DNA of 64,000 nt from Verrucomicrobiales bacterium. Lineage in GTDB: Bacteria > Verrucomicrobiota > Verrucomicrobiia > Verrucomicrobiales > Verrucomicrobiaceae. The position numbers and the translations under genes are program-made. Within the stretch, counting starts at the first letter, position 1. Every line of letters starts with the position of its first letter. Below are positions 15,680 through 56,315 of this stretch, one piece after another. The stretch lies in contig JBBRNC010000008.1 of NCBI GenBank assembly GCA_038230495.1, positions 30,378 to 94,377 on the forward strand. Reading direction: 5' to 3'. The notes under the pieces are model-generated. The model saw nothing but the letters and a program-made list of their open reading frames with translations. It searched no databases and had not been told where the DNA came from.

Positions 15680-18556
15680 TCACGCCGCAATCCCACGAAT
15701 ATACGTCGCCACATAATCCACCACGCGATCGAACACGCGTTTCTTGCTGGGTCCTCGCTCCATAACCCTCAATGGTATTAGGATGAGTTCGGCAATGTCC
15801 GGGTCCGGCAACGGCTCTTTGCCGGTATAGACATAGCGGTCGATGACCTTTTTCAATTTGTCGGCATCAAGATGTTCTTCTTCGACAAGCCGATCGAAAG
15901 CTGCCAGGCGTTCTTTTTCCCAAAATGCTTCAAAAGTCTCGGGAATCTCCGCCGCGCTACCTGCCGCTGGTAAATTCGTTTCGATAAACTTCTCAATCAG
16001 CTCTTTCTTGCTCCGCAGTTCAATGTCGCTGGCTACGCTGTCGAGAATGAGCTTTCTGATCGCAGGTGCTTCGGTTGCATCCGCTCCGTAGAGTTTCGCC
16101 AACAGCGTCAGGATATACTGCACGTTGATTACGTCGCGGTGGATCAGTTCCAGTTCAAAGTCCACGTCGTTGAGGATGGATGCCTTGTCCTTCGTGTTGT
16201 CAGTTTTGACCTTGTCGTAGAGGTCCAGATAAGCGCTGCGATAGTCGGCGAAACGCTGCCCAGTCATCGCGAGGTCGTCGTTTTGGAACTCGGAAAACGA
16301 TTCGAGGATGTTCCGCAGACGCATCAGCTCGCGGAAAATCTTCACGAACAGCATCTCCGCCTCCTCGTCCTTCAGTTCCTTCACGCTCGCCACCGTGGGT
16401 GTGAGTTTGCGCAGTTCTTCAACAACCTCGTTGAACCGCTTCACATACTCCTCATAGGGCGGGACAAAGATTTCCTCCTTCGCCTTCACATTGGAGAAGA
16501 GCGCGATGGCCTCATCCGTGCGCTTCTTGAGGTTGCGGAAGACAACGATGTTCCCCTGACTCTTTACCTCGTTGAGGATGCGGTTTGTTCGAGAGTAAGC
16601 CTGCACCAGCCCGTGGAAGCGCAGATTCTTGTCCACGTAGAGCGTGTTCAGCGTCTTGCTGTCGAAGCCGGTGAGAAACATGTTCACCACCAGCAGCAGG
16701 TCCACCTTCCGTTCCTTCACCTTCTTGGCGATGTCCTGATAGTAGTTATAAAAGCTCTGCGTGTCCTTGGTGGAGTAGTTCGTGGCGAACATTCCGTTGT
16801 AGTCGCCGATGAAGCGCTCCAGCTTGTCGCGGGTGTGCGGGTTTCCGCCGTCACCGCCGATGATCTCGCTGTCTCCGTCCAGGATACCGTCCGCGTCTTT
16901 GTCCTCCTCATTGCTGGTGTAGCTGAAGATCGTCGCCACGCGCAGCTTGTGCTTTCCTTCGGTCTTCCGCTTGGCGAACAGCTCATAGTATTTGATCAGC
17001 ACATCCACGTTGCTCACGCACATCATCGCGGTGAACTCCTTGTTCCGCGTCTTCACCGCGTGATGTTCAATGATGTAGTCCGTGATCTTCTCCAGCCGCG
17101 CCGGGGACTCCATCAACTCGCGCGTGTCGATCCCTTCCACCTCAATGTCCACTTCTGTAGCCGTGCCGGGCTTCTTCTTGTAACGGCCCACATACTCCAC
17201 GGCAAACTTCAGCACATTCTCGTCCTTGATCGCATCCGTGATCACATAGCTGTGCAGCTTCTGGTGGAAGAGGTCTTTCGTCGTGTGCTTCTTCCCGTCC
17301 TTAGTCGCTGCGTTGTCGGCGAAGATCGGCGTGCCGGTGAAGCCGAACATCTGGTGATTGCGGAAGAAGCCGGTGATCCGCTTATGGGTGTCGCCGAACT
17401 GGCTGCGGTGGCACTCATCGAAGATGAAAATGATCCTCTCGTCTTGGAGCTTCGCCATCTTCTCCAGATACTGCGGCTTGCTGATCGCCGCGTTCAGCTT
17501 TTGCAGCGTGGTAACGATCAGCTTGGTGTCGTCGGTGAACTGCTGCACCAGCTTGTGTGTGTTGTTCGTGCTGTCCACGCTCCCTTTGCTGAAGCCGTTG
17601 AACTCTTTGATCGTCTGATAATCTAAATCCTTGCGATCCACCACGAAGACGACTTTATAAATGCCGGGCAGGCCGGTGAGAATCTGCGCCGCCTTGAAGC
17701 TCGTCAACGTCTTGCCGCTGCCAGTTGTGTGCCAGACATAGCCATTGGCGTCTGTCTCCGGTGGGAACTTCACTCGCTCCACGATGCGCACCACCGCGTA
17801 GTATTGATATGGGCGCAGCACCATCAGGATTTTGTCCGTCGCATTGAGCACGATGTATTTCCCGATCATCGTGCCGAGGTGCTCGCGATTGAGGAAGGCG
17901 GTGGCAAAGGGCGTCAGTTCACGGATCGTCTTGTTGTCCTCAGCCGCCCAGTAAAAGGTTTGCTTGAAGGATTGCCGCCGCGCGTTGGCGTAATACTTTG
18001 TGTTCACCCCATTGGAAATCACGAAGAGCTGGACGTAGTGAAACAAGCCTTGCCCGCTCCAGAAGCTGTGTTTCTGGTAACGCTGAATCTGGTTGAACGC
18101 TTCCTTCATCTCCAGCCCGCGCCGCTTTAGTTCGATCTGCACCAGCGGCATGCCATTGACGAGGATCGTCACGTCGTAGCGATTCTTGTAGCTGCCCTCC
18201 ATGGCTACTTGCTGCGTCACCTGATAGCGATTCCGCAGCGGATTCACGGAGTCGAAGAACTCCAGATACGTCACCGTCCCGTCATCGCGGTTCAGCTTCA
18301 TCCGGTCGCGCAGGATTTTCGCCTTCTCGAAGACACCCGCGCTTTTCGTGAGGTGATGCATCACCTGTGTGAACTCGCCTGCCGTCAGCGCCACGCCGTT
18401 GAATGCCTCTAATTGCGCCTTCAGGTTCGCCAGCATCGAAGCCTCGTCCGTCACCGCCGCCTTCGCGTAGCCCATGCCCACGAGCTGCGCGACGAGCGCA
18501 TCCTCCAGCACCTGCTCGGGTTGGGTCATCGGAACAATGTTGAGGGAGGTGCTCAC
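15680..18556 (-). CDS. hsdR: Type I restriction enzyme R subunit (HsdR), SF2 helicase/endonuclease
   Basis: HTTGSGKTLTSF Walker A, DECHRSQ DEAD-box II, 958 aa, typical HsdR length; 4-bp overlap with the upstream gene. Confidence 0.9.
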   Translation of the reverse strand: MSTSLNIVPMTQPEQVLEDALVAQLVGMGYAKAAVTDEASMLANLKAQLEAFNGVALTAGEFTQVMHHLTKSAGVFEKAKILRDRMKLNRDDGTVTYLEFFDSVNPLRNRYQVTQQVAMEGSYKNRYDVTILVNGMPLVQIELKRRGLEMKEAFNQIQRYQKHSFWSGQGLFHYVQLFVISNGVNTKYYANARRQSFKQTFYWAAEDNKTIRELTPFATAFLNREHLGTMIGKYIVLNATDKILMVLRPYQYYAVVRIVERVKFPPETDANGYVWHTTGSGKTLTSFKAAQILTGLPGIYKVVFVVDRKDLDYQTIKEFNGFSKGSVDSTNNTHKLVQQFTDDTKLIVTTLQKLNAAISKPQYLEKMAKLQDERIIFIFDECHRSQFGDTHKRITGFFRNHQMFGFTGTPIFADNAATKDGKKHTTKDLFHQKLHSYVITDAIKDENVLKFAVEYVGRYKKKPGTATEVDIEVEGIDTRELMESPARLEKITDYIIEHHAVKTRNKEFTAMMCVSNVDVLIKYYELFAKRKTEGKHKLRVATIFSYTSNEEDKDADGILDGDSEIIGGDGGNPHTRDKLERFIGDYNGMFATNYSTKDTQSFYNYYQDIAKKVKERKVDLLLVVNMFLTGFDSKTLNTLYVDKNLRFHGLVQAYSRTNRILNEVKSQGNIVVFRNLKKRTDEAIALFSNVKAKEEIFVPPYEEYVKRFNEVVEELRKLTPTVASVKELKDEEAEMLFVKIFRELMRLRNILESFSEFQNDDLAMTGQRFADYRSAYLDLYDKVKTDNTKDKASILNDVDFELELIHRDVINVQYILTLLAKLYGADATEAPAIRKLILDSVASDIELRSKKELIEKFIETNLPAAGSAAEIPETFEAFWEKERLAAFDRLVEEEHLDADKLKKVIDRYVYTGKEPLPDPDIAELILIPLRVMERGPSKKRVFDRVVDYVATYIRGIAA

Positions 18557-19263
18557 GCCTTCGTGTAGGCTTGTTTTTCGTGGTTGGGAGTGTCTGGGAA
18601 AGCCCTTCGGAGACGCTTGTCTTTACACAGCTTCGATAGAAAATCCTGCCGGAGTGTTCTCTCTCCTCGGTCCATGATTTTTGCCAGAGAGCTAATCGTC
18701 ACAAAATGTCCTTCACATACCTGAACAATCAGGTCCTCCAGTTCCTTCCGGTCGATTTTTCCTTTTGTTCTTGGGAGAGTCGCCATCGCCTCCAGTTTCT
18801 CGCGGAAATCTTGAGTCAGTTTATCCACGGAATCCACAAAAGGCAGTCGAAACTGTTCGGCGACCAGCCGCCCGACTTCATCGCGTTTGAGAACCTGTTT
18901 GCCCTCGATAATTGTGGAGCTAGGCCCGATAATTGTAGAGCTGCCCGTCAAAATTGTAGAGCTCGGATCGATAATGATAGTGCTGCCGGGACCAAAAATG
19001 TCATCAGGGTTGGCGGTATCGAAAAGCACTTTCAGAATCTTGTCCGGCTTTTCAATCGAGTTGAAGGCGAACTTCCCCTCCTTCTCCTTCACCCCCAGCA
19101 GCACGATCCCACCATGCATATTCGCCATGGCTGAATAGCTTCTCCAAAAGTCCTGAGGCAATTCTCCTTTTCCATCACGTCCAGCCGCCAACTTGCATTC
19201 GAGTTCATAGTACTCGCGCAGTTGCTCTAGGTCAGCCGTGTTTTGTAGTGGAAACGAGATCAT
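18553..19263 (-). CDS. AlbA_2-like (Schlafen-type) DNA-binding domain protein with C-terminal HTH; contains internal 7-aa tandem repeats
   Basis: N-terminal EQLREYYELECK...IVLLGVKEKEGKF resembles PF04326-type putative DNA-binding domain; PSSTII x3-4 repeats; sits between hsdS and hsdR. Confidence 0.5.
   Translation of the reverse strand: MISFPLQNTADLEQLREYYELECKLAAGRDGKGELPQDFWRSYSAMANMHGGIVLLGVKEKEGKFAFNSIEKPDKILKVLFDTANPDDIFGPGSTIIIDPSSTILTGSSTIIGPSSTIIEGKQVLKRDEVGRLVAEQFRLPFVDSVDKLTQDFREKLEAMATLPRTKGKIDRKELEDLIVQVCEGHFVTISSLAKIMDRGERTLRQDFLSKLCKDKRLRRAFPDTPNHEKQAYTKA
18906..18990. repeat. Four tandem imperfect ~21-bp repeats (CGATAATTGTAGAGCT-like) inside the AlbA_2-like gene
   Basis: cgataattgtggagctaggcc / cgataattgtagagctgcccgt / caaaattgtagagctcggat / cgataatgatagtgctgccggg; encode [GD]PSSTII repeats on the minus strand. 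Confidence 0.75.
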
Positions 19264-19284
19264 GGCGGTTGAACAGAGGCAAGG

Positions 19285-20460
19285 TTAAACAAACATTTGC
19301 TGAAGCAACCCGCGTTTGAAGGTTTGGGTGTGGGTGATCTGCGCGGCCACGGTTTCTATCTTGCGGTCGAGCGCTGTGAGGAAGTTGGCGATCTTGGTTT
19401 GTTCTGCTTGGCAAGGAAGCCCCATTTCCAAACCAGAGATGTCTTCTTTTGTGAATCCTTGAATCGACGTCCCTTGGTTGAAAGTTAGAAGTTTGTTCAG
19501 TGAAAACTTCAAGAAGTAAGCAACAAAGTATGGATTAGCATTCGAAGGAATCAGGCTGGTGAAATCCTGACTCGTGCAAAGGTCCGAAGGAGCGACGACT
19601 GCCTTTCCGACCCCGACCCTTGAAACAATCAGAACGCTGCCTTTCGGAACCAGTTTAGTGGCTGATTCTGCAATGGCCTCGCTGGTGATGAAGCGATTAA
19701 TTCTGATTTGTGTGATGCTCTCTTGCACAAGGTCGGAGCTGGAAACCCAAGGAATACTTCCGCTCCAATATTTTTTCTCGGATTTGCTGGGTGTTCCTCC
19801 GCCAATGAATTTGCCAAGCGTTCCGAAGGTAGTCTCCTCCCAATCGGGGAATTCATTGCCGTGGTCGTCTTGGAAGCGGAGGGCTTGGGTAAAGAGTTGT
19901 TGCATCACGCCTTTCTTGTAAGCCTCCAGCAGAGCTTTCTTTTGGCTCAGTTGCGCCAGCCGCCCATCCACCGCCGTCAAGAAATTCGCAATTTTCCGCT
20001 GCTCGGGTAGGAAGGGGGAACTAATGCTGTAACCTCCGATCTGTGGTCCAGTGAGTTGAGGAACGCCCGTTGATTCAATGAAAAATGGTATTCTGCTTAT
20101 CGCACTCTCGAAAAAGTTGACGTCACCAGCAGCCCGAGGCCGGAGCACGAGCAGCCTTACTATCGGAACGAATCGCTCGTGACGAGCGTGGGGCGTCCCA
20201 AGGTTTCCTCTTCCCGAAACCGTAACACAGCCTCCTTCCTCTTTGTAGTAACTCGCATAGCCGTAGAACCCCTTGTCAGTCTCCGCGTTTGCAAAGACTG
20301 GATATGGAAAATCGTCTGTCTTGGTTTTAGACAGCCTCTCTTTGTCGATGTCGCCTCCAGCTCCAATACGGAATACTTCACTGAGTTCATTAGTTTCCCA
20401 GCTCTCCGTAAATTCGGAAAACCTCAATTTGGGCACGCTCATGGTCTGCTCCATCTTCAT
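19285..20460 (-). CDS. hsdS: Type I restriction-modification specificity subunit (HsdS), two target-recognition domains
   Basis: Two TRD halves separated and followed by conserved coiled regions (LTALDRKIE..., FLTAVDGRLAQL); 391 aa; lower GC. Confidence 0.85.
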   Translation of the reverse strand: MKMEQTMSVPKLRFSEFTESWETNELSEVFRIGAGGDIDKERLSKTKTDDFPYPVFANAETDKGFYGYASYYKEEGGCVTVSGRGNLGTPHARHERFVPIVRLLVLRPRAAGDVNFFESAISRIPFFIESTGVPQLTGPQIGGYSISSPFLPEQRKIANFLTAVDGRLAQLSQKKALLEAYKKGVMQQLFTQALRFQDDHGNEFPDWEETTFGTLGKFIGGGTPSKSEKKYWSGSIPWVSSSDLVQESITQIRINRFITSEAIAESATKLVPKGSVLIVSRVGVGKAVVAPSDLCTSQDFTSLIPSNANPYFVAYFLKFSLNKLLTFNQGTSIQGFTKEDISGLEMGLPCQAEQTKIANFLTALDRKIETVAAQITHTQTFKRGLLQQMFV

Positions 20461-21515
20461 TCCGTGTCCTCCTCTTTGGCCTCAAATCTGGCCCTTGAAA
20501 GCTGGATGGCTTCGTGGAGTTTTTGTTGCAGGAGTTGACGGTCGGGCAGACCGGTGAGGTATTCGGCGACGTGGATGCCGGTGCCGCTGAGTTCCAGCAG
20601 CTCGATCTGCTCAGTCTTTTTTCCGGCGCAGAGGATGAGGCCGAGGGGCGGTTCCTCGCCGGGCTGTTGTTCATGCTTAGCCAGCCAGCGGAGGTAGAGT
20701 TCCATCTGGCCTTTATACTCGGCTTTGAAGTCGCCGAGCTTGAGGTCGATGGCGATGAGGCGCTTGAGCCGCCGGTGATAAAAAAGGAGGTCGATGTAGA
20801 AATCATCCGAGTCGATCTGGATGCGGAATTGTCGGGCCTGAAAGGTGAAGCCGTCTCCCATTTCGAGGAGGAAGTTTTCCAACTCACGCAGGATGGCGTC
20901 CTCCAAGTCCTTTTCCAGATAGCGGTCTTTCAGCCCCAGGAAATCGAGGATGTAGGGATCGCGGAAAACGAGTGAGGGGGTGAGTTTGTCCTCTTCTCTC
21001 AAGGCGGAGAGTTCGGCCTTGGCGACTTCCGCTGGCTGCTTGGAGATGGCGGTGCGCTCGAAAAGCATGGAGTCGATCTTCGAGCGCAAGGTGCGGACGC
21101 TCCAGCGCTCAATGCGGCACATCTCGGCGTAAAAGTCCCGCTGGAGGTCGTCTTTGAGGGGTATAATTTCTTTGAAATGGGACCATCCCAATTGTCGCGA
21201 CAGTGTAGCAACAATTTCACCCTCCGAGAACACTTGGTTAAACCTGACCATCCGGGTGAGGGCGGAGTAGTTGTAACCGCTCCCAAACTCTGCCGTCAAA
21301 GTTTGCGACAGTGTAGCAAGAATCTCCTTCCCATACCCAGCCCGCTTGTTTCCAAGGACTTCAGTCTGGATGCGCTTGCCGATGCGCCAGTAGAGAAGCG
21401 TCAACGCCGCGTTGGCAACTCCGGCCAGCGCGGTTCGAGTCTGCTGGATCATGCTCCGCACATCGGAGACGACACCGGCTGGGCTTTCGATGATGGTGAA
21501 GTCGGCGTCCTTCAT
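20457..21515 (-). CDS. DUF1016/YhcG-like PDDEXK nuclease-domain protein
   Basis: N-terminal LLYWRIGKRIQTEVL...GYGKEILATLSQTL signature of the YhcG family; 352 aa; inserted between hsdM and hsdS as is common for this family. Confidence 0.75.
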   Translation of the reverse strand: MKDADFTIIESPAGVVSDVRSMIQQTRTALAGVANAALTLLYWRIGKRIQTEVLGNKRAGYGKEILATLSQTLTAEFGSGYNYSALTRMVRFNQVFSEGEIVATLSRQLGWSHFKEIIPLKDDLQRDFYAEMCRIERWSVRTLRSKIDSMLFERTAISKQPAEVAKAELSALREEDKLTPSLVFRDPYILDFLGLKDRYLEKDLEDAILRELENFLLEMGDGFTFQARQFRIQIDSDDFYIDLLFYHRRLKRLIAIDLKLGDFKAEYKGQMELYLRWLAKHEQQPGEEPPLGLILCAGKKTEQIELLELSGTGIHVAEYLTGLPDRQLLQQKLHEAIQLSRARFEAKEEDTE

Positions 21516-21518
21516 GAC

Positions 21519-23087
21519 TCAAAAAGGTGGTTTGATTCCCAACTCTGCACAAAAGGCTGCGATGGTAGCATTCGTCCCGCTCATTTCCTGCTCCAGCGTG
21601 GCGAGTTGGGCGGAGACGGCGGCGAGGTCGATGGATTCCTCCGCGTCGAAGGTATCGACGTAGCGCGGGATGTTCAGGTTGTAGTCGTTGGCCTCGACCT
21701 CGCTGCGCTCGGCGACTTTGCTGAATTTCTCGATGCTCTCGCGCTTCCGGTAGGTGCTGACGATGCGCTCTATGTCCTCGGGGCGGAGTTGGTTTTGATT
21801 GCCGACTTTTTCAAAGTGCTGGCTGGCGTCGATGAAGAGGATGTCGTCGGGATGCTCGCGCTGCTTTTTCAGCACGAGGATGCAGGTGGGGATGCCGGTG
21901 CCGTAGAAGATGTTGGCCGGGAGGCCGATGACCGCGTCGAGGTAGTTGCAATCCTCGATGAGATACTTGCGGATGTGGCCTTCTGCCGCGCCGCGAAACA
22001 AGACGCCGTGCGGGAGGACGCAGGCCATGGTGGCACCGCTATCGAGGTGGTGGACCATGTGCTGGACGAAGGCGAAGTCGGCCTTGGTTTTAGGAGCCAG
22101 TTTGCCATAGGCGCTGAAGCGGTCGTCGCTCTCATGGATGGCGCTGGCGGACCAGTTGGCGGAGAAGGGCGGATTGGCGACGATGGCCTCGAAGCGCAAA
22201 TCGGCGTGCTCGGGCGCGGGATGCTCCAGGGTGTCCTCGTTCTTCAGGTCGAAGCGCTGGTAGTGGACACCGTGCAGAATCATGTTCATGCGGGCGAGGT
22301 TGTAGGTCGTGGGGTTCATCTCCTGCCCGTAGAAGTGGCCCACGTCCTCAACCTCCTTCGCCACGCGCAGCAGCAACGAGCCGGAGCCGCAGGTGGGATC
22401 ATAGACGCTTTTTAGCTTGGTCTTTCCGGTGGTGACGATCTTCGCTAAAATGGTGCTGACCTCCTGCGGCGTGTAGAACTCGCCGGCCTTCTTCCCCGCC
22501 CCGCTGGCGAACTGGCCGATGAGGTATTCGTAGGCATCGCCCAGCACGTCGGCCTCGGTATCGGCGAGGCGGAAGTCGATGCCATCGAGGTGGACGAGGA
22601 CTTTGGCGATGAGTTCGTTTTTCTGGTTCTCGGTCTTGCCGAGCTTCGACGAGCCGAGGTCGAGGTCCTCGAACAAGCCCTCGAAGTCGTCCTCACTGTC
22701 ATGGCCCATGGTGCTGGCCTCGATGTGCTTGAGGATGGCGGTGAGGTCTTCCAAGATGAAATTGTCCGTCTTCTGCGCACCCTTTTCGGCGACCTTGTGG
22801 AAGAGTTCGGACGGCTTCAGAAAATAGCCCAGCCGCCCGATGCATTCCTCCTGAATGGCTACGAGCATTTCCTTCCCCTTCTTGGTGGACTCGTCGATGT
22901 CGGCGAATTTGATCCCGTCATTCTTCAGGATGTCATCCGCGAAGAGGTGCATCCGCTCGGAGAGGTATTTGTAAAAGATGAAACCGAGGATGTAGTCGCG
23001 AAACTCATCAGCCCCCATCTTCCCGCGCAGGGTGTTGGCGATGTTCCAGAGCTGGGATTGGAGCGTCTTTTTGTGGTCGTCGGACAT
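21519..23087 (-). CDS. hsdM: Type I restriction-modification DNA methyltransferase subunit (HsdM), N6-adenine
   Basis: N-terminal HsdM_N helix (LWNIANTLRG), SAM motif DPTCGSGSLL, catalytic NPPF; 522 aa. Confidence 0.9.
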   Translation of the reverse strand: MSDDHKKTLQSQLWNIANTLRGKMGADEFRDYILGFIFYKYLSERMHLFADDILKNDGIKFADIDESTKKGKEMLVAIQEECIGRLGYFLKPSELFHKVAEKGAQKTDNFILEDLTAILKHIEASTMGHDSEDDFEGLFEDLDLGSSKLGKTENQKNELIAKVLVHLDGIDFRLADTEADVLGDAYEYLIGQFASGAGKKAGEFYTPQEVSTILAKIVTTGKTKLKSVYDPTCGSGSLLLRVAKEVEDVGHFYGQEMNPTTYNLARMNMILHGVHYQRFDLKNEDTLEHPAPEHADLRFEAIVANPPFSANWSASAIHESDDRFSAYGKLAPKTKADFAFVQHMVHHLDSGATMACVLPHGVLFRGAAEGHIRKYLIEDCNYLDAVIGLPANIFYGTGIPTCILVLKKQREHPDDILFIDASQHFEKVGNQNQLRPEDIERIVSTYRKRESIEKFSKVAERSEVEANDYNLNIPRYVDTFDAEESIDLAAVSAQLATLEQEMSGTNATIAAFCAELGIKPPF

Positions 23088-23250
23088 GAAGTATTTTTAA
23101 GTGTGGCTCGGCATTTATATCTAAGACAAGTCGCAGAGAAGAAAGAACTACACGTCAGCGAACAGACAAGTCCAGAATTTTAGACCACACGGTATAAATT
23201 TTACCTTGGAATATGTTGCTCCGCGGGCAGATGATCTTCATTAACGCAAA

Positions 23251-23943
23251 TCAATCGCGGCAGGCTTTCACGACAAAATCCAAAAGCGCAGCACTGAGCG
23301 GCTGGACACGCAGATCAATGGGTGCCAGCAGACCGTCGTTCATCAGAATGATGTTGCCACGATGCGTGTCAGAAATCACCACGTTCCTTTCAGGATCAAA
23401 GTAAGCCACTTCCCCGCTGACTGTGAAGCGCTTCCAGCCGTTACCGGTGAAAAAGTCGTTGATCTGAGCCAGCGTTGCTGGTTCTCCTTCGATGGCCTGC
23501 TGCTGGATCACCAGCCTCAGTCTGCTATCCGCTTCCCACACTCCGAGAAAGCTCACCGTGTCGCCAAACATCTCGTTGTGCAGTTGCCATCGTTCAAGAT
23601 AGGCGATGGGCGATGACCGCTCATCTTCGTCCTGCCGGTAGAGCACCTGCATCCCGAAAAAATCCGGCCATGTGATCTTCAAATAAGTGTTCTTATCCGG
23701 TTGAAACCAGACCTGATGCTCGTTGCCCTCCTCATCGGGCTTCCGGCTCAGTTCTGTGGGCGGGCCTGATAGGAGGAAGAATCCTCTCTCACACGCGTAG
23801 TCCCTGAAGATTCTGACCTCTTCGAGGTAATGGGTAGAACCGCCCTGAACATGCGAAGCTGCTTCACAGCGGCTTCGTAGCTCTTCAACGTGTGCTTCGA
23901 GCGGGATTCCCGCAATTGATCGGCCAGACTCATTGGAGGACAT
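23251..23943 (-). CDS. Hypothetical protein with HipA-C-like kinase-fold catalytic motifs
   Basis: ISDTHRGNIILMNDG (D-x-H-x-x-N catalytic-loop-like) followed by LLAPIDL (resembles the HipA LAPxYD activation segment); 230 aa, no P-loop seen. Confidence 0.4.
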   Translation of the reverse strand: MSSNESGRSIAGIPLEAHVEELRSRCEAASHVQGGSTHYLEEVRIFRDYACERGFFLLSGPPTELSRKPDEEGNEHQVWFQPDKNTYLKITWPDFFGMQVLYRQDEDERSSPIAYLERWQLHNEMFGDTVSFLGVWEADSRLRLVIQQQAIEGEPATLAQINDFFTGNGWKRFTVSGEVAYFDPERNVVISDTHRGNIILMNDGLLAPIDLRVQPLSAALLDFVVKACRD

Positions 23944-28743: not shown

Positions 28744-29523
28744 ATGCTTGCCAAGGCTCCAATCTCCACTCAAATCTCAATCCTTATGTTCGTTCGCACA
28801 TTGTTAGTCCTATCAGTCGCCGTTACCATGCCGTTCCAGTTGAATGCGCAGAACGCATCCGCAAAAAAAGGCTGGGGAGGTGATCCGGCCTCGGCCACCA
28901 AACTTAAGGCGCACTGGCATTACAATTGGTGGACAAACGGCAAATCAAGTCACGGCTTGGAATTTGTCCCGATGGTAAAAGGAAAAAAACAAGTGAACGA
29001 CACGGTGCTCAAAGCTATCAAGAGCAATGGCGCGAAAGTCATCCTCTGCTTGAACGAACCGGAACGCGCCTCGCAAGGCGACACCACTGTTGAAGAAGCC
29101 CTCAATCTCTGGCCAAAGCTTATGAAGACTGGCCTGCGCCTCGGAAGTCCCGCGCCCTCATCCGATGCTGCTGGTATGGCTTGGCTGGATACTTTTATGC
29201 AGGGTGTCGAGAAGAAGAAACTGCGAGTCGATTTCATCGCCCTACACTGGTATCGCAGTTCCGATCCCGACAAGTTTGAGGAATTTTTAAAAGAGATTCA
29301 CGACAAATATAAGCGCCCCATTTGGGTTACAGAGTTCAATTCCCAATACTCCAAAGGAGACCGTGACCAATTTGCCGCTCAGGCCTTCAAAATTTGTGAC
29401 CGCCTCGATTTCGTTGAACGCTACAGTTACTTCACCACCAAACCCGGCGAACCCGGCAGCTTGTGGAAAGATGGCGGACACAAGGAACTCACTCCGCTCG
29501 GTAAGGACTACACATCCCATTGA
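28744..29523 (+). CDS. Secreted glycoside hydrolase, GH128-like (Glyco_hydro_cc)
   Basis: Signal peptide; conserved LCLNEPE (catalytic Glu) and VTEFN (nucleophile Glu) blocks typical of the GH128/Glyco_hydro_cc fold. Confidence 0.65.
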   Translation: MLAKAPISTQISILMFVRTLLVLSVAVTMPFQLNAQNASAKKGWGGDPASATKLKAHWHYNWWTNGKSSHGLEFVPMVKGKKQVNDTVLKAIKSNGAKVILCLNEPERASQGDTTVEEALNLWPKLMKTGLRLGSPAPSSDAAGMAWLDTFMQGVEKKKLRVDFIALHWYRSSDPDKFEEFLKEIHDKYKRPIWVTEFNSQYSKGDRDQFAAQAFKICDRLDFVERYSYFTTKPGEPGSLWKDGGHKELTPLGKDYTSH

Positions 29524-29549
29524 GTGCTGGTTGTAACAGTGAAGATGAA

Positions 29550-30329
29550 ATGCTTGCCAATTCTCCAATTTCCACACAAATCCCGGCTCTTATGTTCCTT
29601 CGCCTATTCTTAGTTCTGACGATCGCTGTTATAACGCCATTTCAGTTGAATGCGGAAAACGCTTCTGCAAAAAAAGGCTGGGGAGGTGATCCTGCCACCG
29701 CCACCAAACTTAAGGCTCACTGGTATTACAACTGGTGGACAAACGGCAAATCAAGTCCTGATCTGGAATACGTTCCGATGGTAAAAGGGAAAAAACAAGT
29801 CAATGAGAAGACGCTCGATGCCATCAAGGCCAGCGGCGCAAAAGTTCTGCTCTGCTTGAACGAACCGGAACGTGACTCGCAAGGTGACACCACCGTTGAC
29901 GAAGCCCTCAATCTCTGGCCCAAGCTTATGAAGACCGGCCTGCGCCTCGGAAGTCCCGCGCCCTCTTCCGATCATGGCGGCATGGCATGGCTGGATCGCT
30001 TCATGCAGGGCGTTGCCAAAAGGAAGCTCCGGGTCGATTTCATCGCTTTGCACTGGTATCGCAGTTCCAACCCCAAGGAGTTTGAGGATTTTTTAAAAGA
30101 GATTCACCACAAGTATAAACGCCCCATCTGGGTTACTGAGTTCAATTCCCAATACTCCAAAGGGGACCGCGACCACTTTGCAGTGCAAGCCTTCAAAATC
30201 TGTGACCGCCTAGATTTCGTCGAGCGCTACAGTTACTTCAGCGCCAAACCCGGTCACCCCGGCAGCTTATTTAAAGAAGGCGGACACTCGGAATTGACGC
30301 ACCTCGGAGAAGACTACCTCCGGCATTAA
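29550..30329 (+). CDS. Secreted GH128-like glycoside hydrolase, tandem paralog of the preceding gene
   Basis: About 80% aa identity to 28744..29523 along the full length, same LCLNEPE/VTEFN motifs; ORF track start 29520 trimmed to the MLANSPIST Met. Confidence 0.65.
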   Translation: MLANSPISTQIPALMFLRLFLVLTIAVITPFQLNAENASAKKGWGGDPATATKLKAHWYYNWWTNGKSSPDLEYVPMVKGKKQVNEKTLDAIKASGAKVLLCLNEPERDSQGDTTVDEALNLWPKLMKTGLRLGSPAPSSDHGGMAWLDRFMQGVAKRKLRVDFIALHWYRSSNPKEFEDFLKEIHHKYKRPIWVTEFNSQYSKGDRDHFAVQAFKICDRLDFVERYSYFSAKPGHPGSLFKEGGHSELTHLGEDYLRH

Positions 30330-33241: not shown

Positions 33242-34309
33242 TCACTCGGGCTGAAAAAACAGCGTGAACTCGTGCCGGTTGTAAGTCAGGTGCGTCTGCG
33301 CGAACAACTTCAATCCACCGATGGCTGCTGCTCTTACGATTTCATCAAAAAGTTCCAGCGGTGCATGCACTGTTTCTATGCGCGGAATTTTCAGAGTGAA
33401 AATAACCAGCCCATTCTTCTTCAAAAATACTGACAGCCTGATGACCTGATTGATTGATTCGTGAGGGTCGCCATTCATGTCTGAAAGCAACGCATCATAT
33501 TTCGCGCCCGTCTCTGGTTGAAATTCCGCCACGTTACCACGCACAAATTTTAGCCCGCGCTGATTATGCAGCCGAGCATCTAAAACCGCTACATCTAGCG
33601 CCGTCACGCGCTGTCCCCGCGCCAGCAATTCCGCCGTCATCCCACCGGGACTCGCTCCAAGCTCCAGCCAGTGACTGCCCGCAGGCAGCGGCATGCGATA
33701 CAGTAAAAGATAATGCAAGGCCTCGGCGATCTTCGCCCCGGCGCGACTGATAAGATCAGGCGATTCCACGCCGATGTATTTGCTCCCTCCGGCATAGAAG
33801 CCGTTGGCTGCGCGAGGACTTTGCATACCGCAGAACAATCCTTCCTTACCTACGAGACAGAACAACGTCTCCGCCTCAGGATTCTGCTGCTCCACCTCCT
33901 TCACTCGCAGAGGCGGAAAAAGTTGGAGCACGCGACCGCGCAGATTCGTGGCCAGACTTTTGTAGTAACGATCCGGCGATCCCGCATTGATCTGGCCGAC
34001 GAGAATCGTCTGCGGATTCCGCACCCCGAATTTCTTGAACAATGTCTGCGCCGCCTTCTCGACGAAGCCTTCCATCTTCTGAGGATTGCAGGGCCACGCG
34101 TGTTCTAATGGCAGGTTCCAGCGGACAAATTTCGCTGCGCCCGAGTGCCTCACAGCCTCGGTCTGCTGCGTCTTGATCAAATAATATTCGTTGCCCAGCT
34201 TAGTGCAAATTTGCGCATGGAAGCGTTGCAGAATCTCATCCGCGATGCCTGAAAAAATCTCCGGGATGCGCACTAGCCACGCGACCACATTGTTCTGATC
34301 TGCATTCAT
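33242..34309 (-). CDS. rlmM: RlmM-like 23S rRNA 2'-O-ribose methyltransferase (THUMP-like N-domain plus FtsJ-like MTase)
   Basis: SAM motif LELGASPGGMT, catalytic region DMNGDP, 355 aa; 4-bp overlap with the upstream LRR-kinase gene. Confidence 0.6.
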   Translation of the reverse strand: MNADQNNVVAWLVRIPEIFSGIADEILQRFHAQICTKLGNEYYLIKTQQTEAVRHSGAAKFVRWNLPLEHAWPCNPQKMEGFVEKAAQTLFKKFGVRNPQTILVGQINAGSPDRYYKSLATNLRGRVLQLFPPLRVKEVEQQNPEAETLFCLVGKEGLFCGMQSPRAANGFYAGGSKYIGVESPDLISRAGAKIAEALHYLLLYRMPLPAGSHWLELGASPGGMTAELLARGQRVTALDVAVLDARLHNQRGLKFVRGNVAEFQPETGAKYDALLSDMNGDPHESINQVIRLSVFLKKNGLVIFTLKIPRIETVHAPLELFDEIVRAAAIGGLKLFAQTHLTYNRHEFTLFFQPE

Positions 34310-35640
34310 AGCGTTATTTTCACAAGCCGCGCGAGTTCCGATTCAATCTCCGCAAACAAAGGCCGCGCTGACACCTCTGCCGCAATGCAGCGCGCTTGCA
34401 AGGCCCGCAATCCATCCATGACCGGCTTTTGTGCTGGCTCCAATACCACGCGATCCAATAACTCTTCCAGCAGACATGCAAACGCGCGGACTTCGATTCG
34501 TTGCAACGCGGATGACGCCCGGTTCTCCATCGCTGAATAGAATGAGGCCGCGCCGAAGTCACCCAAGAGACAGTGCCCGTCTTCATGCCACAACACATTA
34601 TGCGCGTAGAGATCGCCGTGCATGATGCCCCGCACATGAAGCCGTTGCGCCGCAGAAGCAATACCACGCGCGATACGAAACGATACGGAGAGGGTAAAGT
34701 TTTGATCTTCCGCATAAAGATCGCGCGTGCACGAATCAAAATCTGGCGGCCCGGCGAGTGTGCGGAATTCGGGTTCAATCAATGACATCACTAGCCCTTC
34801 GCTTCGCATCGGATGATTCACGATGCGCCCCATCACCTCGATCAAATTTGGATGCGCACCGGCAGCGAGACACGCGGCCATTTCGCTAGCAGGCAGTCCG
34901 TCACTGGTGACTGCGCCTTTGAAAACCTTCACTGCCACCGATTGCGACACATCACCGCTCGCTGATCGCCAAGACGCACGATGAATCACGCCCGAGGCTC
35001 CCTCGCCGAGTTGCTCATGCAACTCAATCTGCGCCCAATCAATCTCCGCCATCACGTCTGAATCATTATCCAACGCGTTCGCACAAGGATTGCCCGCCAG
35101 TGCCAGCCATGACAACTTCGGCAGCGAAAGCAGCCACTCCGGCAAGGCGCGGAGATTGTTAGCCGCCAGCCGGATGAGTTCCAGATTCTTGCACGCCGCC
35201 ATCTCCACAGGTAGCTCGTCGAGTTGATTGCCAGCGAGCATCAGCTTCTGCAACCGAGTGCAGCGCCCGATGGTCGGCGGCAACTTGCGGATTCGATTGT
35301 CCGTGAGACTCAGCCAGCGCAAAGCCGGAGAAAACGCGCCCTCATCCACGGAATCAATGCGGTTTGATTTGAAACCGATCATGCTCAGATTCTCGCAATC
35401 GCTGAGCACGGCGGGAAGATGAGTAAAGTCGTTCGATGAACAAAAGAGGATGCGCAACTTGCGCAGTCGGCCCAGATCATCCGGCAGTGTGGAGAGCCGG
35501 TTGTTCGTCAGACTGAGAACCTCCAGCGAATCCGCCAGATCAAAAATCTCTCGCGGAAACTCCGTTAGCCCGCAGGCCAGTTCCAGCCGAGTCGCCCCGG
35601 CCAGCTTTCCGGCGCGCAATAATTCAAGAGTGTCCATCAT
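34306..35640 (-). CDS. Leucine-rich-repeat protein fused to a eukaryotic-like Ser/Thr protein kinase domain
   Basis: About 7 LRRs (LxxLxLxxNxL: LEVLSLTNNRLSTLP, LRILFCSSNDFTHLP, LRWLSLTDNRIRKLP...) then a kinase with GEGASG loop, VAVKVFK lysine, HGDLYAHNVLW catalytic loop and LGDFGAA. Confidence 0.75.
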   Translation of the reverse strand: MMDTLELLRAGKLAGATRLELACGLTEFPREIFDLADSLEVLSLTNNRLSTLPDDLGRLRKLRILFCSSNDFTHLPAVLSDCENLSMIGFKSNRIDSVDEGAFSPALRWLSLTDNRIRKLPPTIGRCTRLQKLMLAGNQLDELPVEMAACKNLELIRLAANNLRALPEWLLSLPKLSWLALAGNPCANALDNDSDVMAEIDWAQIELHEQLGEGASGVIHRASWRSASGDVSQSVAVKVFKGAVTSDGLPASEMAACLAAGAHPNLIEVMGRIVNHPMRSEGLVMSLIEPEFRTLAGPPDFDSCTRDLYAEDQNFTLSVSFRIARGIASAAQRLHVRGIMHGDLYAHNVLWHEDGHCLLGDFGAASFYSAMENRASSALQRIEVRAFACLLEELLDRVVLEPAQKPVMDGLRALQARCIAAEVSARPLFAEIESELARLVKITL

Positions 35641-53041: not shown

Positions 53042-53154
53042 CAGAGCCGCGTTCCTTACTTCGCGATGAGCGAAGCGCAACTTTGGAGTGAAATTTGGAG
53101 CGCGGCGAATTTGACTGGACGGACGTGCGCAGTTCCATCATCCTTTCCGACAAT

Positions 53155-54472
53155 GAAACGCCACTCCTGCCTCCAGCTTGAGATGTTTTCGATCCTGCTC
53201 CTTCTGAGCACCAGCGTCGTTGCGCGAGAATGGAAAGACAGCGCGGGCAGAAAAATTGAAGCTGACATTCTCGGCATCGAACAAGGCAACGCCGTCGTGA
53301 TCGTGCAAGGCAAGCAACGCGCCAAGCTGCCTCTAGCCAAACTGTCTGCTGATGACCAAACATGGTTGAAGGAATGGGCCAAGGATAAATCCCCCGCGCA
53401 ACAGCTCCCGCTTCCGATCTGGCCCGAGACCGTGCTCCAGCCAGAGATCAAGCTCACAGGCGGAAAATCCAAAGATGGAGTCTTCGTTTTCCACAGCCCG
53501 CATTATGAATTTAATTGCGACGCTGAAGTATCCGCATCCGTGATCAATGACTTCGCCACCGTCGCTGAAGGCACACTGAAATTAATCTACTCGTTACCGC
53601 TGCGCTTCGCTCCATTGGAGGGCCGCACCTTTGGCGCACGCATCTGCCAGAGCCGCACGGCTTACGAACGCGCAGGCGGCCCACCCGGCAGCGGGGGCGT
53701 GTTCATCATGGGAAACATGAGCGGCCAAGGCGTGCTCCTCGTTCCATTCGAGAGTCTGGGCATCGAGAAATTCGCGGGACACAATACTAAGAGTTACAAC
53801 TATCACTCCACCGTGCTCATTCATGAGATGGCGCATCAGACCACAGCGGAACTGCTGCCGCTCATGCCCAAATGGGTTGCGGAAGGCCTGGCCGAATACG
53901 CAGGTAACATGATCTATCGCAACGGAGTGTTCTATCTCGGTGCCCGCGACCGCTTGCAGGCCTTGCACACGCGGCTGGATACCTACGATAAGCTCTCGCG
54001 AGAACAAGACGCGCAAGTAATGGCCTCGCCCTCTAATAAACCGCCCGCTCCCGCGAATGCTACGCCGACTCGCCTACCGGAAAGCTGGATCATGCGCCCT
54101 AGCGAACTGGTGAAAAAAACTGACCGCGACTGGAGCACTAATGTCAATAATCGCGCCGCTCATATCCAGCTCCATCGCATGTATCTCTCCTCCATGTTCC
54201 TCGTGCATTACTATCTCCACATGGCCGACAATGGTGAAGCGCGCCGCATCCGCTTATACTTTGACGAACTGGCCACCGACTCCGCCTGGTTCCGCACTCA
54301 GGGACGCGGCGGCGAACCCGCCCCCTCTTACCTTAAGAGCGATTCTTCCATCGAAGACATTCGCAGTCACTATGCGCGTCATCTTTTCTCAGCAAGTGAT
54401 CTCGCCGCGCTCGATGCGGATTTCCGCGCGAAATATGTTGCTCTGGGGTTCAGGATTCCGGAGTGGAAGTGA
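53155..54472 (+). CDS. Secreted protein with N-terminal SHD1-like module and HExxH (HEMAHQ) metallopeptidase-like motif
   Basis: Signal peptide; REWKDSAGRKIEADILG...AKLSADDQTWLKEWA; later IHEMAHQ; ORF track 52727..54472, start trimmed to MKRHSCLQ. Confidence 0.5.
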
Positions 54473-54506
54473 ACTGGCTGTTTTTTTGATAAAATACTGG
54501 AAAATC

Positions 54507-54575
54507 CCCGTGAATGAACAGCTTCCGGCTCATCCAAAAGTAACTCCATCTGGAGATCAGCGTCAGATAGTGTCT
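54507..54575. repeat. Degenerate ~66-bp copy of the pgsA 3' end (left boundary of the DUF433/DUF5615 cassette)
   Basis: ccgtgaatgaacagcttccggctcatccaaaagtaactccatctggagatcagcgtcagatagtg is about 75% identical to 55210..55275; minus-strand translation LTLISRWSYFWMSRKLFIHGDF versus the PgsA C-terminus LTLISGWSYFYKNRSLFLNGAG. Confidence 0.75.
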
Positions 54576-54642
54576 GTGCTGCTCCGCGACACGGTTCTGC
54601 GTGCGCCTTGACTCGTGATGCCAAAATAGCTAACTTCCCAAC

Positions 54643-54879
54643 ATGAATTACCGAGAGCGTATTATGATCGATCCACGCATTCGCAGCGGCAAGCCCTGCA
54701 TACGCGGCACACGGATCGCAGTGGCGGACGTTTTCGATTACCTCGGTGGCGGCATGACCATTGCCGAAGTGCTGGACGATTTTCCTGACCTGACCGCCGA
54801 CGACATTCAGGCGTGCTTTGCGTTTGCCGCTGACAGTGACCGCCGCCTAAACGTCGTTCCGCATGCAGTTGCTCTTTGA
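54643..54879 (+). CDS. DUF433-family putative antitoxin
   Basis: IDPRIRSGKPCIRGTRIAV...FPDLTADDIQACFAFAA is the DUF433 consensus; 78 aa. Confidence 0.7.
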   Translation: MNYRERIMIDPRIRSGKPCIRGTRIAVADVFDYLGGGMTIAEVLDDFPDLTADDIQACFAFAADSDRRLNVVPHAVAL

Positions 54880-55201
54880 TGAGAATCTTTCTCCCAAGCT
54901 GCCTCGCTTGGTGGAGATGCTTTTCCCCAACAGCACGCACGTCCGCGAGTGCGGGCTGCTTGGCCAACCCGACGAGGAAGTGTGGGAGTATGCGCGCACC
55001 CACGGCTTAGCCATCATCACGAAGGACTCCGACTTTCATCAGCGCAGTATGCTTTACGGCCATCCACCCAAAATCGTCTGGCTACGTATTGGCAACTGCA
55101 CCCGAGAGCAACTCGTCCAACTAATCACGGCACACGAACTGGTTATACACGCGCTCGACACAGACCCCTTCGAAGCTGTGCTCATCCTCTCCTCACCCTA
55201 A
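54863..55201 (+). CDS. DUF5615-family (PIN-like) putative toxin
   Basis: MQLLFDENLSPKL...GLLGQPDEEVWEYARTHGLAIITKDSDF matches the DUF5615 consensus; overlaps DUF433 by 17 nt. Confidence 0.7.
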   Translation: MQLLFDENLSPKLPRLVEMLFPNSTHVRECGLLGQPDEEVWEYARTHGLAIITKDSDFHQRSMLYGHPPKIVWLRIGNCTREQLVQLITAHELVIHALDTDPFEAVLILSSP

Positions 55202-55824
55202 CTCCCCGCTCCGTTGAGAAACAGTGAGCGGTTTTTATAAAAGTAACTCCAGCCGGAGATCAGTGTCAGTGAAACCATGATGGCGAGACAGGAGAAGCCG
55301 AACACGTGGGGCGAGAACCATTTCCACTCGAACGCATGGGCGGCCCATTGCATCATCGGTTCGCCACCGCCAGGGCCGGGTGGCTCTGCGCTGGCGCGCG
55401 CGGCCATGAAATAGACGACGGTGATCATCTGCCAGAGGGTTTTGTGCTTGCCGAGTTTCTCTGCGGCCAGCACCGCGCCCTTGTTCATCGCGAGCAGGCG
55501 AATGCCAGTCACGAAGAACTCGCGAGCTAACACCACGATCACCGTCCATGCGGGTAGTCGCAATGGCTCGCGCGGCTCAGCCGCCAGCATCACTAGGGCC
55601 GCAGCCATGAGAATCTTGTCTGCCAGTGGATCCATCAGCTTGCCGAAATCCGTGACGAGATTCTGCCGACGAGCGATCTCGCCATCGAGGTAATCCGTGA
55701 ATGATGCGACGAGGAATATGATCAACGCCCACGACACTCGGTTTTCTAGCGGGACATAAAACAACACGACGAACACCACCGTCAGCAGAAGACGGGCAAT
55801 GGTGAGTTTGTTAGGAAGATTCAT
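55198..55824 (-). CDS. pgsA: CDP-diacylglycerol--glycerol-3-phosphate 3-phosphatidyltransferase
   Basis: CDP-alcohol phosphatidyltransferase motif DYLDGEIARRQNLVTDFGKLMDPLADK; 208 aa. Confidence 0.85.
   Translation of the reverse strand: MNLPNKLTIARLLLTVVFVVLFYVPLENRVSWALIIFLVASFTDYLDGEIARRQNLVTDFGKLMDPLADKILMAAALVMLAAEPREPLRLPAWTVIVVLAREFFVTGIRLLAMNKGAVLAAEKLGKHKTLWQMITVVYFMAARASAEPPGPGGGEPMMQWAAHAFEWKWFSPHVFGFSCLAIMVSLTLISGWSYFYKNRSLFLNGAGS
55210..55278. repeat. Intact pgsA 3'-terminal segment, right copy of the direct repeat flanking the TA cassette
   Basis: See 54507..54575; this copy encodes the actual PgsA C-terminus. Confidence 0.75.
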
Positions 55825-55871: not shown

Positions 55872-56315
55872 TCACCTTTCGGAAAACACCGGCTTTTTCC
55901 AAATAGGCACGCTGGTCTTGATCTCTTTTAGATACCACCGGCACAGATCAAATGAGAGCGCACTGTGCTTTGTCCGCACGCGAATGATGATGCTCGGTTC
56001 TTTCGCGGGAACAAAGCCAAGCCGATGCCTGATCTCGACATGATGCGCCCCATGCTCGACTTGGGCGCGTTCGCAGAGGGCCGCGAGTTCGTTGTCGGCC
56101 ATCGGGCGATAAGCGCTGTATTCGATCCCGCTGATCGGCTGGCCATCTTCCTCGCCGCGCACCACCCCGAGAAATTGCGTCTCCGCGCCCTCGCCATCGG
56201 CAAATACCGTAGGCCCGGCGATGATCGGGCTTTCTGAAAGATGGATGGTGAACGCGGGCATGAACACACGATCCATCGCGATTTCTGCCGCAACATCAAG
56301 CTTGCCGTTTGCCAT
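55872..56315 (-). CDS. moaE: Molybdopterin synthase catalytic subunit
   Basis: MoaE fold blocks (HRLGFVPAKEPSIIIRV); 147 aa; moaD lies 19 kb away. Confidence 0.75.
   Translation of the reverse strand: MANGKLDVAAEIAMDRVFMPAFTIHLSESPIIAGPTVFADGEGAETQFLGVVRGEEDGQPISGIEYSAYRPMADNELAALCERAQVEHGAHHVEIRHRLGFVPAKEPSIIIRVRTKHSALSFDLCRWYLKEIKTSVPIWKKPVFSER

Follow-up and report, generated by a model that had tools for sequence, protein, structure and literature searches.

A DUF433/DUF5615 toxin-antitoxin cassette at the 3' end of pgsA that looks like a minimal mobile element of Verrucomicrobiaceae

How did a pair of toxin-antitoxin (TA) genes come to lie directly against the end of pgsA, between that gene and a second, degenerate copy of its own 3' end, with no recombinase in the insert? 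This question was raised by a stretch of 64,000 nucleotides (nt) from a Verrucomicrobiales bacterium (GenBank assembly GCA_038230495.1, contig JBBRNC010000008.1, positions 30,378 to 94,377), which is called the window below and in which a preliminary description had noticed a small DUF433/DUF5615 module next to pgsA. We found the same unit at the same site in at least three Verrucomicrobiaceae species, and it looked like a minimal mobile element. The features of the locus, numbered from the first nucleotide of the window, were as follows.

53153-54472, plus strand: geneX, an open reading frame (ORF) of 439 amino acids (aa) with an HEMAH motif, the ancestral convergent neighbour of pgsA
54473-54507, minus strand: spacer and extreme end of the displaced, apparently native pgsA tail, with the stop codon lost
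54508-54566, minus strand: left repeat, the apparently displaced and decaying native pgsA 3' end (nt ~13-72 from the stop), which reads LTLISRWSYFWMSRKLFIH
54567-54605, minus strand: 39-nt probable remnant of a cassette-borne left pgsA copy, recognised by the shared junction and by spacing
54606-54642, plus strand: putative cassette promoter region (-35 box TTGACT at 54608-54613, 17-nt spacer, -10-like TAACTT at 54631-54636)
54643-54879, plus strand: DUF433 (COG2442) antitoxin gene, 78 aa (PF04255, E=7e-25)
54863-55201, plus strand: DUF5615/PIN_10 (COG4634, Mut7-C-like PIN) toxin gene, 112 aa (PF18480, E=1e-33; PF18478, E=1e-6)
55198-55272, minus strand: working pgsA tail, the last ~75 nt (ending in LTLISGWSYFYKNRSLFLNGAGS and the stop), including the right repeat at 55211-55269
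55198-55824, minus strand: pgsA, encoding CDP-diacylglycerol-glycerol-3-phosphate 3-phosphatidyltransferase, intact, 208 aa (PF01066, CDP-OH_P_transf, E=1.5e-43)
55872-56315, minus strand: moaE, the gene beyond pgsA

The antitoxin and toxin ORFs overlapped by 17 nt and spanned 559 bp in all (54643-55201), and both matched their Pfam families, so that the two-gene module of 0.56 kb was recovered as first described. With its -35 box and everything up to the end of the toxin gene included, the cassette measured ~590 bp. Its last stop codon had been placed back-to-back with that of pgsA, and the two in fact overlapped (55199-55201 for the toxin, 55198-55200 for pgsA). The pgsA product was 95% identical in aa to P0001. 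The gene on the other side had been called unrelated; it was instead the conserved convergent partner of pgsA. No Pfam family matched geneX, and its orthologues (82-87% identity) adjoined pgsA in related Verrucomicrobiaceae. Since an independent Logan assembly (SRR19962015) had the identical arrangement, the locus was not an assembly artefact. The G+C content of the cassette (0.55-0.58) was the same as that of its surroundings and therefore gave no signal of foreign origin.

The duplicated pgsA end and the carriers of the cassette

The segments 54508-54566 and 55211-55269 formed an ungapped direct repeat with 43 of 59 positions identical (73%), including a core (54536-54566 and 55239-55269) with 28 of 31. 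Its local score was 27, whereas shuffled sequences (n=500) averaged 9.1 and never exceeded 14. The repeat search returned the same pair at a spacing of 703, and the 64 kb contained no further match to the core pattern (chance expectation 0). Read on the minus strand, the left copy gave LTLISRWSYFWMSRKLFIHGDF as against LTLISGWSYFYKNRSLFLNGAGS and the stop in the real PgsA, which reproduced the earlier translation; the frame was kept over 20 codons, and G->R, K->M and N->S changes were present in the conserved SGxSYFWKNR motif. The degenerate pgsA tail reported on the far side of the cassette was thus borne out by the score. Of the ~66 bp given for the repeat, 59 nt stood as a real duplication of the tail, but this segment was only the survivor of a left copy of probably ~195 nt (see below). 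Between the pseudo-tail and the geneX stop there were zero stops in any frame, and relatives held only 8-14 nt there. Identity fell from 28/31 to 15/28 along the repeat; a core with a foreign arm was considered as the reason and rejected, as the last codons evolve fast and are prone to indels, which accounted for part of the effect. We gave more weight to the contrast between nt 1-75 and nt 76-171 of pgsA given below. A further repeat (D3, 12 nt) and the inverted pairs from the repeat search were judged to be due to chance.

To see the site without the cassette, species-representative genomes (GTDB) were too distant, as their best PgsA was 56% identical and synteny was not conserved; closer relatives were reached by protein searches and then by contig look-ups (loci are given below by our own handles). 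The site was empty in three related lineages, in two of which DNA was compared; only 8-14 nt separated the stops of pgsA and geneX. Namely, the pgsA stop lay 14 nt from the convergent geneX stop in L083/L084 (PgsA 95% identical in aa, 85% in nt), and the gap was 8 nt in L086. None of the cassette-free relatives had a duplicated pgsA tail. Both comparisons proposed in the preliminary description therefore came out in its favour: without the cassette, pgsA was directly convergent with geneX across the 8-14-nt gap, and no such relative kept a second tail. Since relatives had an empty pgsA/geneX junction, the cassette was shown to be an insertion.

The junction was moreover a hotspot, struck repeatedly by small addiction modules. 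In L087/L089 it held an 835-bp insert (L087:4597-5431), co-directional with pgsA, with an AbrB-like ORF and a PF01850 PIN gene (VapBC type); a RelE/Xre TA pair was present in L139, and a 126-aa ORF occupied the pgsA/geneX gap in the JGI contig of P0005. No second pgsA tail was detectable in the L087 insert, and a candidate decayed tail in this VapBC insertion was rejected since its scores were within the shuffle range. Beside cstA, a few kb from the same region, L088:1177-1916 encoded a UPF0175/DUF3368 (PIN-like COG2405) TA pair, a further sign of TA richness around the locus.

Two further species, represented by L135 and L139, bore the same cassette at the same junction. The former was found through P0212, a 112-aa relative of the toxin, and its DUF433/DUF5615 operon overlapped the stop of a 208-aa pgsA; the latter was found through the geneX orthologue P0125. 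The order in L139 was geneX, a 148-nt AT-rich spacer, a pgsA 3' pseudo-copy, a RelE(PF06296)/Xre-like TA pair, a pgsA-like remnant, the promoter and the DUF433 gene. Counted from the stop, which was in frame, the pseudo-copy covered pgsA nt 1-168 and had the tail LFLNGAVS; the remnant corresponded to nt ~179-195. In a joint alignment, the junction CTGCGY/GCGCCTTGACTCG, which joined pgsA-like sequence (nt ~179-195) to the -35 box of the cassette, was common to the window, L135 and L139. L135 kept pgsA nt 164-194 (25/31 identical; 0 of 500 shuffles reached the score against four of five orthologues). The window kept nt 13-72 and the 39-nt remnant, in which CGGTTCTGCG at 54592-54601 corresponded to pgsA nt 184-193 with a counterpart spacing of 789, the same as in L135; ~86 nt were deleted there relative to L135. 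Because the window, L135 and L139 each retained different parts, the left pgsA copy was, judged from this alignment, originally ~195 nt long. In L139 the RelE(PF06296)/Xre-like pair (L139:2611-3380) lay inside the decaying left pgsA copy, of which ~12 nt were lost and not duplicated at this point, and this was a case of one TA nested in the footprint of another.

The age of the cassette was considered from synonymous divergence (dS), which was 0.28-0.36 for the cassette, about half of the 0.45-0.95 of the host genes.

TA genes, window against L135: dS 0.35 (bootstrap 0.23-0.49)
antitoxin, among the three carriers: dS 0.28-0.31
pgsA, window against L135: dS 0.72 (bootstrap 0.53-0.97)
pgsA, all four species: dS 0.45-0.73
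geneX: dS about 0.95

The non-carriers L083 and L087 were no farther from the carriers than the carriers were from one another. Since the dS of the cassette was lower than that of the hosts and the non-carriers were equally distant, the cassette was younger than the species splits. These divergences showed a cassette that was younger than the host genes around it and sat at the same site in each carrier.

The last codons of pgsA had a different relationship from the rest of the gene, as can be seen from the numbers of identical positions.

pgsA nt 1-75 from the stop: window, L135 and the L139 copy mutually 63-65/75; against L083/L087 50-55/75
pgsA nt 76-171: window, L135 and the L139 copy mutually 81-85/96; against L083/L087 80-88/96

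In the second segment every pair fell within 80-88/96. The contrast showed a breakpoint near pgsA nt 75, coinciding with the end of the window repeat (nt 72). The left copy in the window was equidistant (40-45/61) from all orthologues. It had TGG (Trp, as in the family consensus SYFWKNR), whereas all cassette-linked tails, including the left copy of L139, had TAT (Tyr). Since the ancestral Trp codon was kept in the distal copy and the cassette-linked tails had Tyr, the distal copy was shown to be of native character, apparently the species' own pgsA end, displaced and decaying. We conclude that the working last ~25 codons of pgsA came with the cassette.

The preliminary description had also asked whether cassettes bounded by direct repeats occurred elsewhere, and related ones did exist at other genes. 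Significant flanking direct repeats were present at 4 of ~21 distinct genomic contexts of the DUF433/DUF5615 family, the window locus itself being one of the four. In the background, made of random 555-bp 'inserts' in 1.25 Mb of control DNA, the same score was reached in 4 of 1500 trials (0.3%). The other three repeat-bounded contexts were the following.

L101 (3416-4464): repeat of ~115 nt; 3' end and stop of a convergent oligopeptide ABC-ATPase gene
L110 (1467-2517): repeat of at least 120 nt, ~85% identity; 3' end of a gene without identification
L105/L106 (L105:2369-3456): repeat of 47 nt; intact tRNA-Ala and a copy of its 3' half

The distal copy in L101 was frameshifted and abutted the stop of the upstream gene, and the host ORF in L110 now read into the antisense of the toxin end. 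L101 had an additional 67-aa ORF upstream of the antitoxin, and L105 had a truncated 93-aa toxin followed by REP-like (repetitive extragenic palindromic) palindromes (AGCCCGCTGAAGCGGGCT). The closest homologue of the toxin (L092:626-631 and L132:1344-1349) had its stop exactly back-to-back with that of a convergent response-regulator gene (product ending in VLNGS), a tail-to-tail arrangement like that at pgsA; the search of L132, which gives this homologue's full context, returned no flanking repeat. Just past the toxin stop, the window and L092 were alike over ~15 nt, CTAACTCC(+6 nt)CGTTSAG; this was rejected as a conserved cassette end, since it was absent in L093 and was explained by the pgsA stop region.

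How the cassette may have reached the same site

The explanation that we favoured, and to which we gave an even chance, was that a recombinase-free TA unit has spread by homology-guided insertion, carrying the pgsA 3' end among Verrucomicrobiaceae. In a source lineage, the cassette would have inserted into the narrow space separating the convergent stops of pgsA and geneX, and the pgsA 3' end would have become duplicated on either side of it ('long target duplication'). The cassette and a copy of the last ~195 nt of pgsA would then have moved together as a unit and spread laterally among related Verrucomicrobiaceae species. Recombination of the carried pgsA segment with the resident pgsA would restore the same address each time, possibly through a Campbell-type single crossover of an excised circle, or through one homologous and one illegitimate end. 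In the window, the crossover would lie ~72-75 nt from the pgsA stop; the imported tail would complete pgsA, the gene's own tail would be pushed to the geneX side and decay there, and the rest of the cassette-borne left copy would be trimmed to 39 nt. Either route would give the order of native tail, cassette-borne remnant, cassette, imported tail and native pgsA body. Loss of the insert would be difficult, both because of addiction and because an essential gene would depend on it for its working end: since the native tail was mutated and its stop was lost, loss of the cassette through the repeats would damage pgsA. Host RecA-type recombination as the agent, the circular intermediate, the transfer route, the activity of the TA pair and its stabilising effect are steps that we infer.

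The search for mobility machinery was in keeping with the description of an insert without a recombinase. No integrase, transposase or integron gene was present in any ORF of at least 120 aa of the 64-kb window, and no tyrosine or serine recombinase was found; the insert held only the two TA genes. The repeat search gave no terminal inverted repeats, and with a repeat of 59-195 nt, in place of a target duplication of 2-14 bp, the locus did not have the features of an insertion sequence, a transposon or a miniature inverted-repeat transposable element. Neither an attC-like inverted repeat at the cassette ends nor an integron integrase in the window was found, and there was no tRNA. Viral contigs contained no relative of the toxin, and plasmids gave three cyanobacterial matches, none with flanking repeats. 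Since the unit carried ~195 nt of pgsA homology, host homologous recombination was at least as likely as site-specific integration of the recombinase type.

Several points weighed against homology-guided spread. No circular or excised form and no transfer vehicle were seen among these data. For a Campbell crossover, the 86-nt deletion and the joint at 54566/54567 required a later deletion or an illegitimate joint, and the 39-nt remnant in the window was not statistically significant alone. L135 and L139 were short contigs, the latter ending inside the antitoxin gene, before any working pgsA tail. The dS values were based on 78-190 codons, and synonymous rates may differ between genes. A different TA pair occupied the same gap in L087 with no detectable repeat, and ~17 of the 21 DUF433/DUF5615 contexts were without one, so this mode of insertion was not universal. 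Finally, a recombinase encoded beyond the 64 kb and acting in trans was a serious rival.

This last point leads to classical site-specific integration, in which an attP mimicking the pgsA 3' end would have been used by a tyrosine or serine recombinase that was lost or is encoded elsewhere, the cassette being non-autonomous and mobilised in trans. The geometry was exactly that of attL and attR, in that the replacement 3' end was borne by the element and the native one was displaced, and in three species the unit occupied one and the same address. Inside the 28/31 core, at the end of the repeat nearer the gene, lay a 13-nt identical block, TGGAGTTACTTTT; the left copies of L135 and L139 were too decayed or incomplete for a comparison of crossovers. 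A related cassette also lay between tRNA-Ala and a copy of its 3' half, which is a classic integrase signature. However, the orientation of the TA genes relative to the target 3' end differed between this tRNA case and the protein-gene cases, and the flanks outside the promoter-to-stop unit were not conserved between loci, hence there was no common att arm. Neither the unit nor the window nor the flanks of L105, L101 and L110 (ORF lists only) contained a recombinase. Moreover, the four independent cases consisted of little more than the TA pair, and repeated decay of larger islands to this same remainder was unlikely. On balance, we considered this explanation rather unlikely.

A single ancient insertion was the next to be considered, with a ~195-nt target duplication, vertical inheritance, independent decay of the copies, precise loss in non-carriers and later exchange of patches. 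The left junction common to all carriers, the different deletions of the left copy in three lineages and the precedent of long target duplication in restriction-modification units could all be read in this way. So could the two copies in the window, which shared TGG (Trp) at repeat codon 7 and CTG at codon 16, absent from L083, L087 and L086. On the other hand, the dS of the cassette was half or less of the host dS in every pair, and the carriers were no closer to one another than to non-carriers in pgsA or geneX. The distal tail had Trp where the duplicated tail type had Tyr, and descent from that copy would require a two-step reversal. Pure vertical inheritance was rejected on account of dS, and the version with patch exchange still required recombination between species, which is the core of homology-guided spread. 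The present limited data suggest polyphyletic carriers with star-like, shallow cassette trees, and we regarded the ancient insertion as improbable.

Finally, that repeat and cassette were unconnected, either as a chance or structural similarity or as a small local duplication of the pgsA end before an ordinary illegitimate TA insertion, agreed with a short repeat of only 73% identity and with most TA insertions lacking a flanking repeat (including L087 at the same site), but was very improbable in view of a score far beyond shuffles with the frame kept over 20 codons and an enrichment of flanking repeats about 70-fold over background, and was already contradicted by the empty sites, where cassette-free relatives had no second tail, and by L139, where a 168-nt second copy lay at the same place.

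Likeness to known systems

The mode of insertion was closest to 'insertion with long target duplication', described for restriction-modification (RM) units, which have no mobility genes and whose repeats (46-423 bp) often extend over the 3' ends of genes (PMC2853133). As at the pgsA locus, the RM cases (Nobusato et al. 2000, Gene 259:99; Furuta, Abe & Kobayashi 2010) concerned a small selfish or addiction unit without a mobility gene, bounded by direct repeats, some tens to hundreds of bp long, whose sequence was single-copy at the empty site of a related genome and often overlapped the 3' end of a neighbouring gene. Here, the insert measured ~590 bp (less than 20 kb) and contained no mobility genes; the repeat was longer than 30 bp (59 nt now and probably ~195 originally) and was single-copy at the empty sites of L083/L084 and L086. 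The systems differed in cargo, restriction-modification there and a type II TA pair in the window, and in the origin of the repeats: both copies came from the resident target in RM units, whereas one copy in the window was apparently native and the other imported. The same unit at the same address in three species would also correspond to a reinvasion step, for which the RM papers contained no evidence. Long target duplication was ascribed to a property of restriction enzymes, namely DNA double-strand breakage, within a hypothetical cycle of insertion, excision and reinvasion (PMC2853133), and a later review listed it for RM systems only (PMC3874152). In the literature that we searched, of which coverage was incomplete, no description of it for TA pairs was found. 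The present locus ties the mobility of TA pairs to a kind of insertion described only for restriction-modification, and it suggests that long target duplication may be independent of a DNA-cutting restriction enzyme.

Integrase elements such as e14 and phage 21 at icd supply a replacement 3' end of their target gene. In these elements, in PAISt, which integrates at bacA (PMC4057263), and in tRNA-targeting islands, the target likewise stays intact through a diverged, element-borne 3' end, the native end comes to lie on the far side as a pseudo-copy, and relatives have empty sites. Direct repeats of the target 3' end and empty sites in relatives were found here as well, and the working 3' end was probably element-borne with a native distal copy. 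Nevertheless, integrase elements are 10-100 kb in size and have a recombinase, while the unit at pgsA would be ~0.8 kb and none was present in it or in the window; related cassettes also had no conserved att arms, and the ~195 nt of homology were enough for host recombination. TA cassettes of chromosomal integrons (PMC2654758) were similar in that a complete TA operon with its promoter formed a mobile cassette of less than a kilobase. They differed from the cassette studied here, which had no attC-like inverted repeat, integron integrase or attI and whose target was the 3' end of a gene.

Homology-facilitated illegitimate recombination, reportedly described by de Vries and Wackernagel in 2002 during natural transformation, is a further process that can be compared. 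It uses one short homologous anchor with the other end illegitimate, which fitted the abrupt joint at 54566/54567. However, this process usually deletes recipient DNA, whereas a duplicated segment was left here.

Movement of chromosomal TA pairs between genomes is largely unexplained, and they are called 'mobile' mainly for their patchy distribution or for their carriage on plasmids, phages and integrons. The kind of gene pair described here was already known (PIN-COG2442 TA). What was new was the evidence of a 0.8-kb recombinase-free TA unit with a piece of the 3' end of its target gene, colonising the same site in several species by a mechanism that we infer. The traces that it left can be dated: the native gene end is displaced, the left copy is decaying and the cassette is younger than its hosts. 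The imported segment that would complete pgsA makes this a candidate case of a selfish cassette entrenched as part of an essential gene. Genomes can be searched for its signature, namely a small addiction module flanked by a working gene 3' end and a degenerate second copy of that end. As a wider and quite tentative proposal, more doubtful than probable, DUF433/DUF5615 cassettes and possibly other TA pairs could be recombinase-free elements that use a captured 3' end of ~50-200 nt as an address label, excising, transferring and re-integrating by host recombination and becoming entrenched through the working end of an essential gene. If true, this would provide comparative evidence for the reinvasion step of the virus-like RM cycle of the Kobayashi group, and would extend that cycle to TA systems with toxins other than DNA endonucleases.

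The toxin-antitoxin pair and other features of the window

By family membership, the two genes were identified as a type II TA pair of the PIN-COG2442 (DUF433/DUF5615) family and would be active as such: a DUF433 antitoxin gene lay directly upstream of a PIN-like toxin gene in one operon, and the DNA-binding DUF433 antitoxin would neutralise the DUF5615 PIN-like nuclease toxin. The acidic motifs FDEN and KDSDF were present in the toxin as in its homologues (judged by eye). Such pairs were predicted to be TA systems (Makarova et al. 2009, PMC2701414), and COG4634/PIN_10 toxins were classed as Mut7-C-like PIN domains (PMC5499597). Within the family, experimental validation, with growth arrest by the toxin and neutralisation by the antitoxin, concerned only VapBC10 of Synechocystis (PMC3834315). 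Like VapBC10 and M. tuberculosis VapBC45 (Rv2018/Rv2019), the pair in the window had the DUF433 antitoxin gene upstream of, and overlapping, that of a small PIN-like toxin, with its own putative promoter and with high mobility between phyla in the family. One difference was that VapC10 was described only as a PIN-domain toxin, and in the literature we found no tested member of the DUF5615/COG4634 subgroup.

Another difference from the known toxins was the C-terminal extension of two codons, along with signs of relaxed constraint. Database relatives of the toxin were at most 80% identical and normally 110 aa long, ending in VLVLS, whereas the toxin of the window had 112 aa and read into the pgsA stop, so that its extension ended in the complement of that codon. 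Compared with L135, the ratio of nonsynonymous to synonymous divergence (dN/dS) was 0.036 for the antitoxin, indicating strong purifying selection, and 0.28 for the toxin (window 54863-55201 against L135:356-694), with 2/14 and 25/15 nonsynonymous/synonymous codon differences, respectively. The faster evolution of the toxin suggests relaxed constraint or decaying toxicity, with the antitoxin kept.

Upstream of the antitoxin, a CTTGACTC(G) box ~35 nt before the ATG was kept in seven of nine aligned homologous loci (L092, L096, L098, L099, L100, L122 and the window). There was no conservation between these loci upstream of the box; the CTTGACTC box and the two genes were conserved, the flanks were not. 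A consensus promoter scan did not call the cassette promoter, and the promoter and terminator scan was convincing nowhere; its function as a promoter was proposed because the box was conserved. After the -10-like TAACTT the predicted leader would be very short. No terminator was predicted between the TA operon and pgsA; therefore, TA transcripts may run antisense into pgsA.

Elsewhere in the window, a type I restriction-modification island (15680-23943) followed directly after dnaB (14104-15624), and no flanking direct repeats were found around it. Its genes were as follows.

15680-18556: HsdR, followed by a 236-aa ORF
19285-20460: HsdS
20457-21515: YhcG/DUF1016 PDDEXK nuclease
21519-23087: HsdM
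23251-23943: 'Kinase-PolyVal' protein

An SHD1 (SLA1 homology) domain was annotated on several geneX orthologues, and the protein encoded at 247-840 of the window combined a Planctomycete cytochrome c domain (PSCyt1) with a weak SHD1 match. A tandem duplication at 28744-30329 consisted of two neighbouring Glyco_hydro_cc paralogues. At 34306-35640, a leucine-rich-repeat protein was fused to a Ser/Thr/Tyr kinase domain, a eukaryote-like combination that is unusual for a bacterium.

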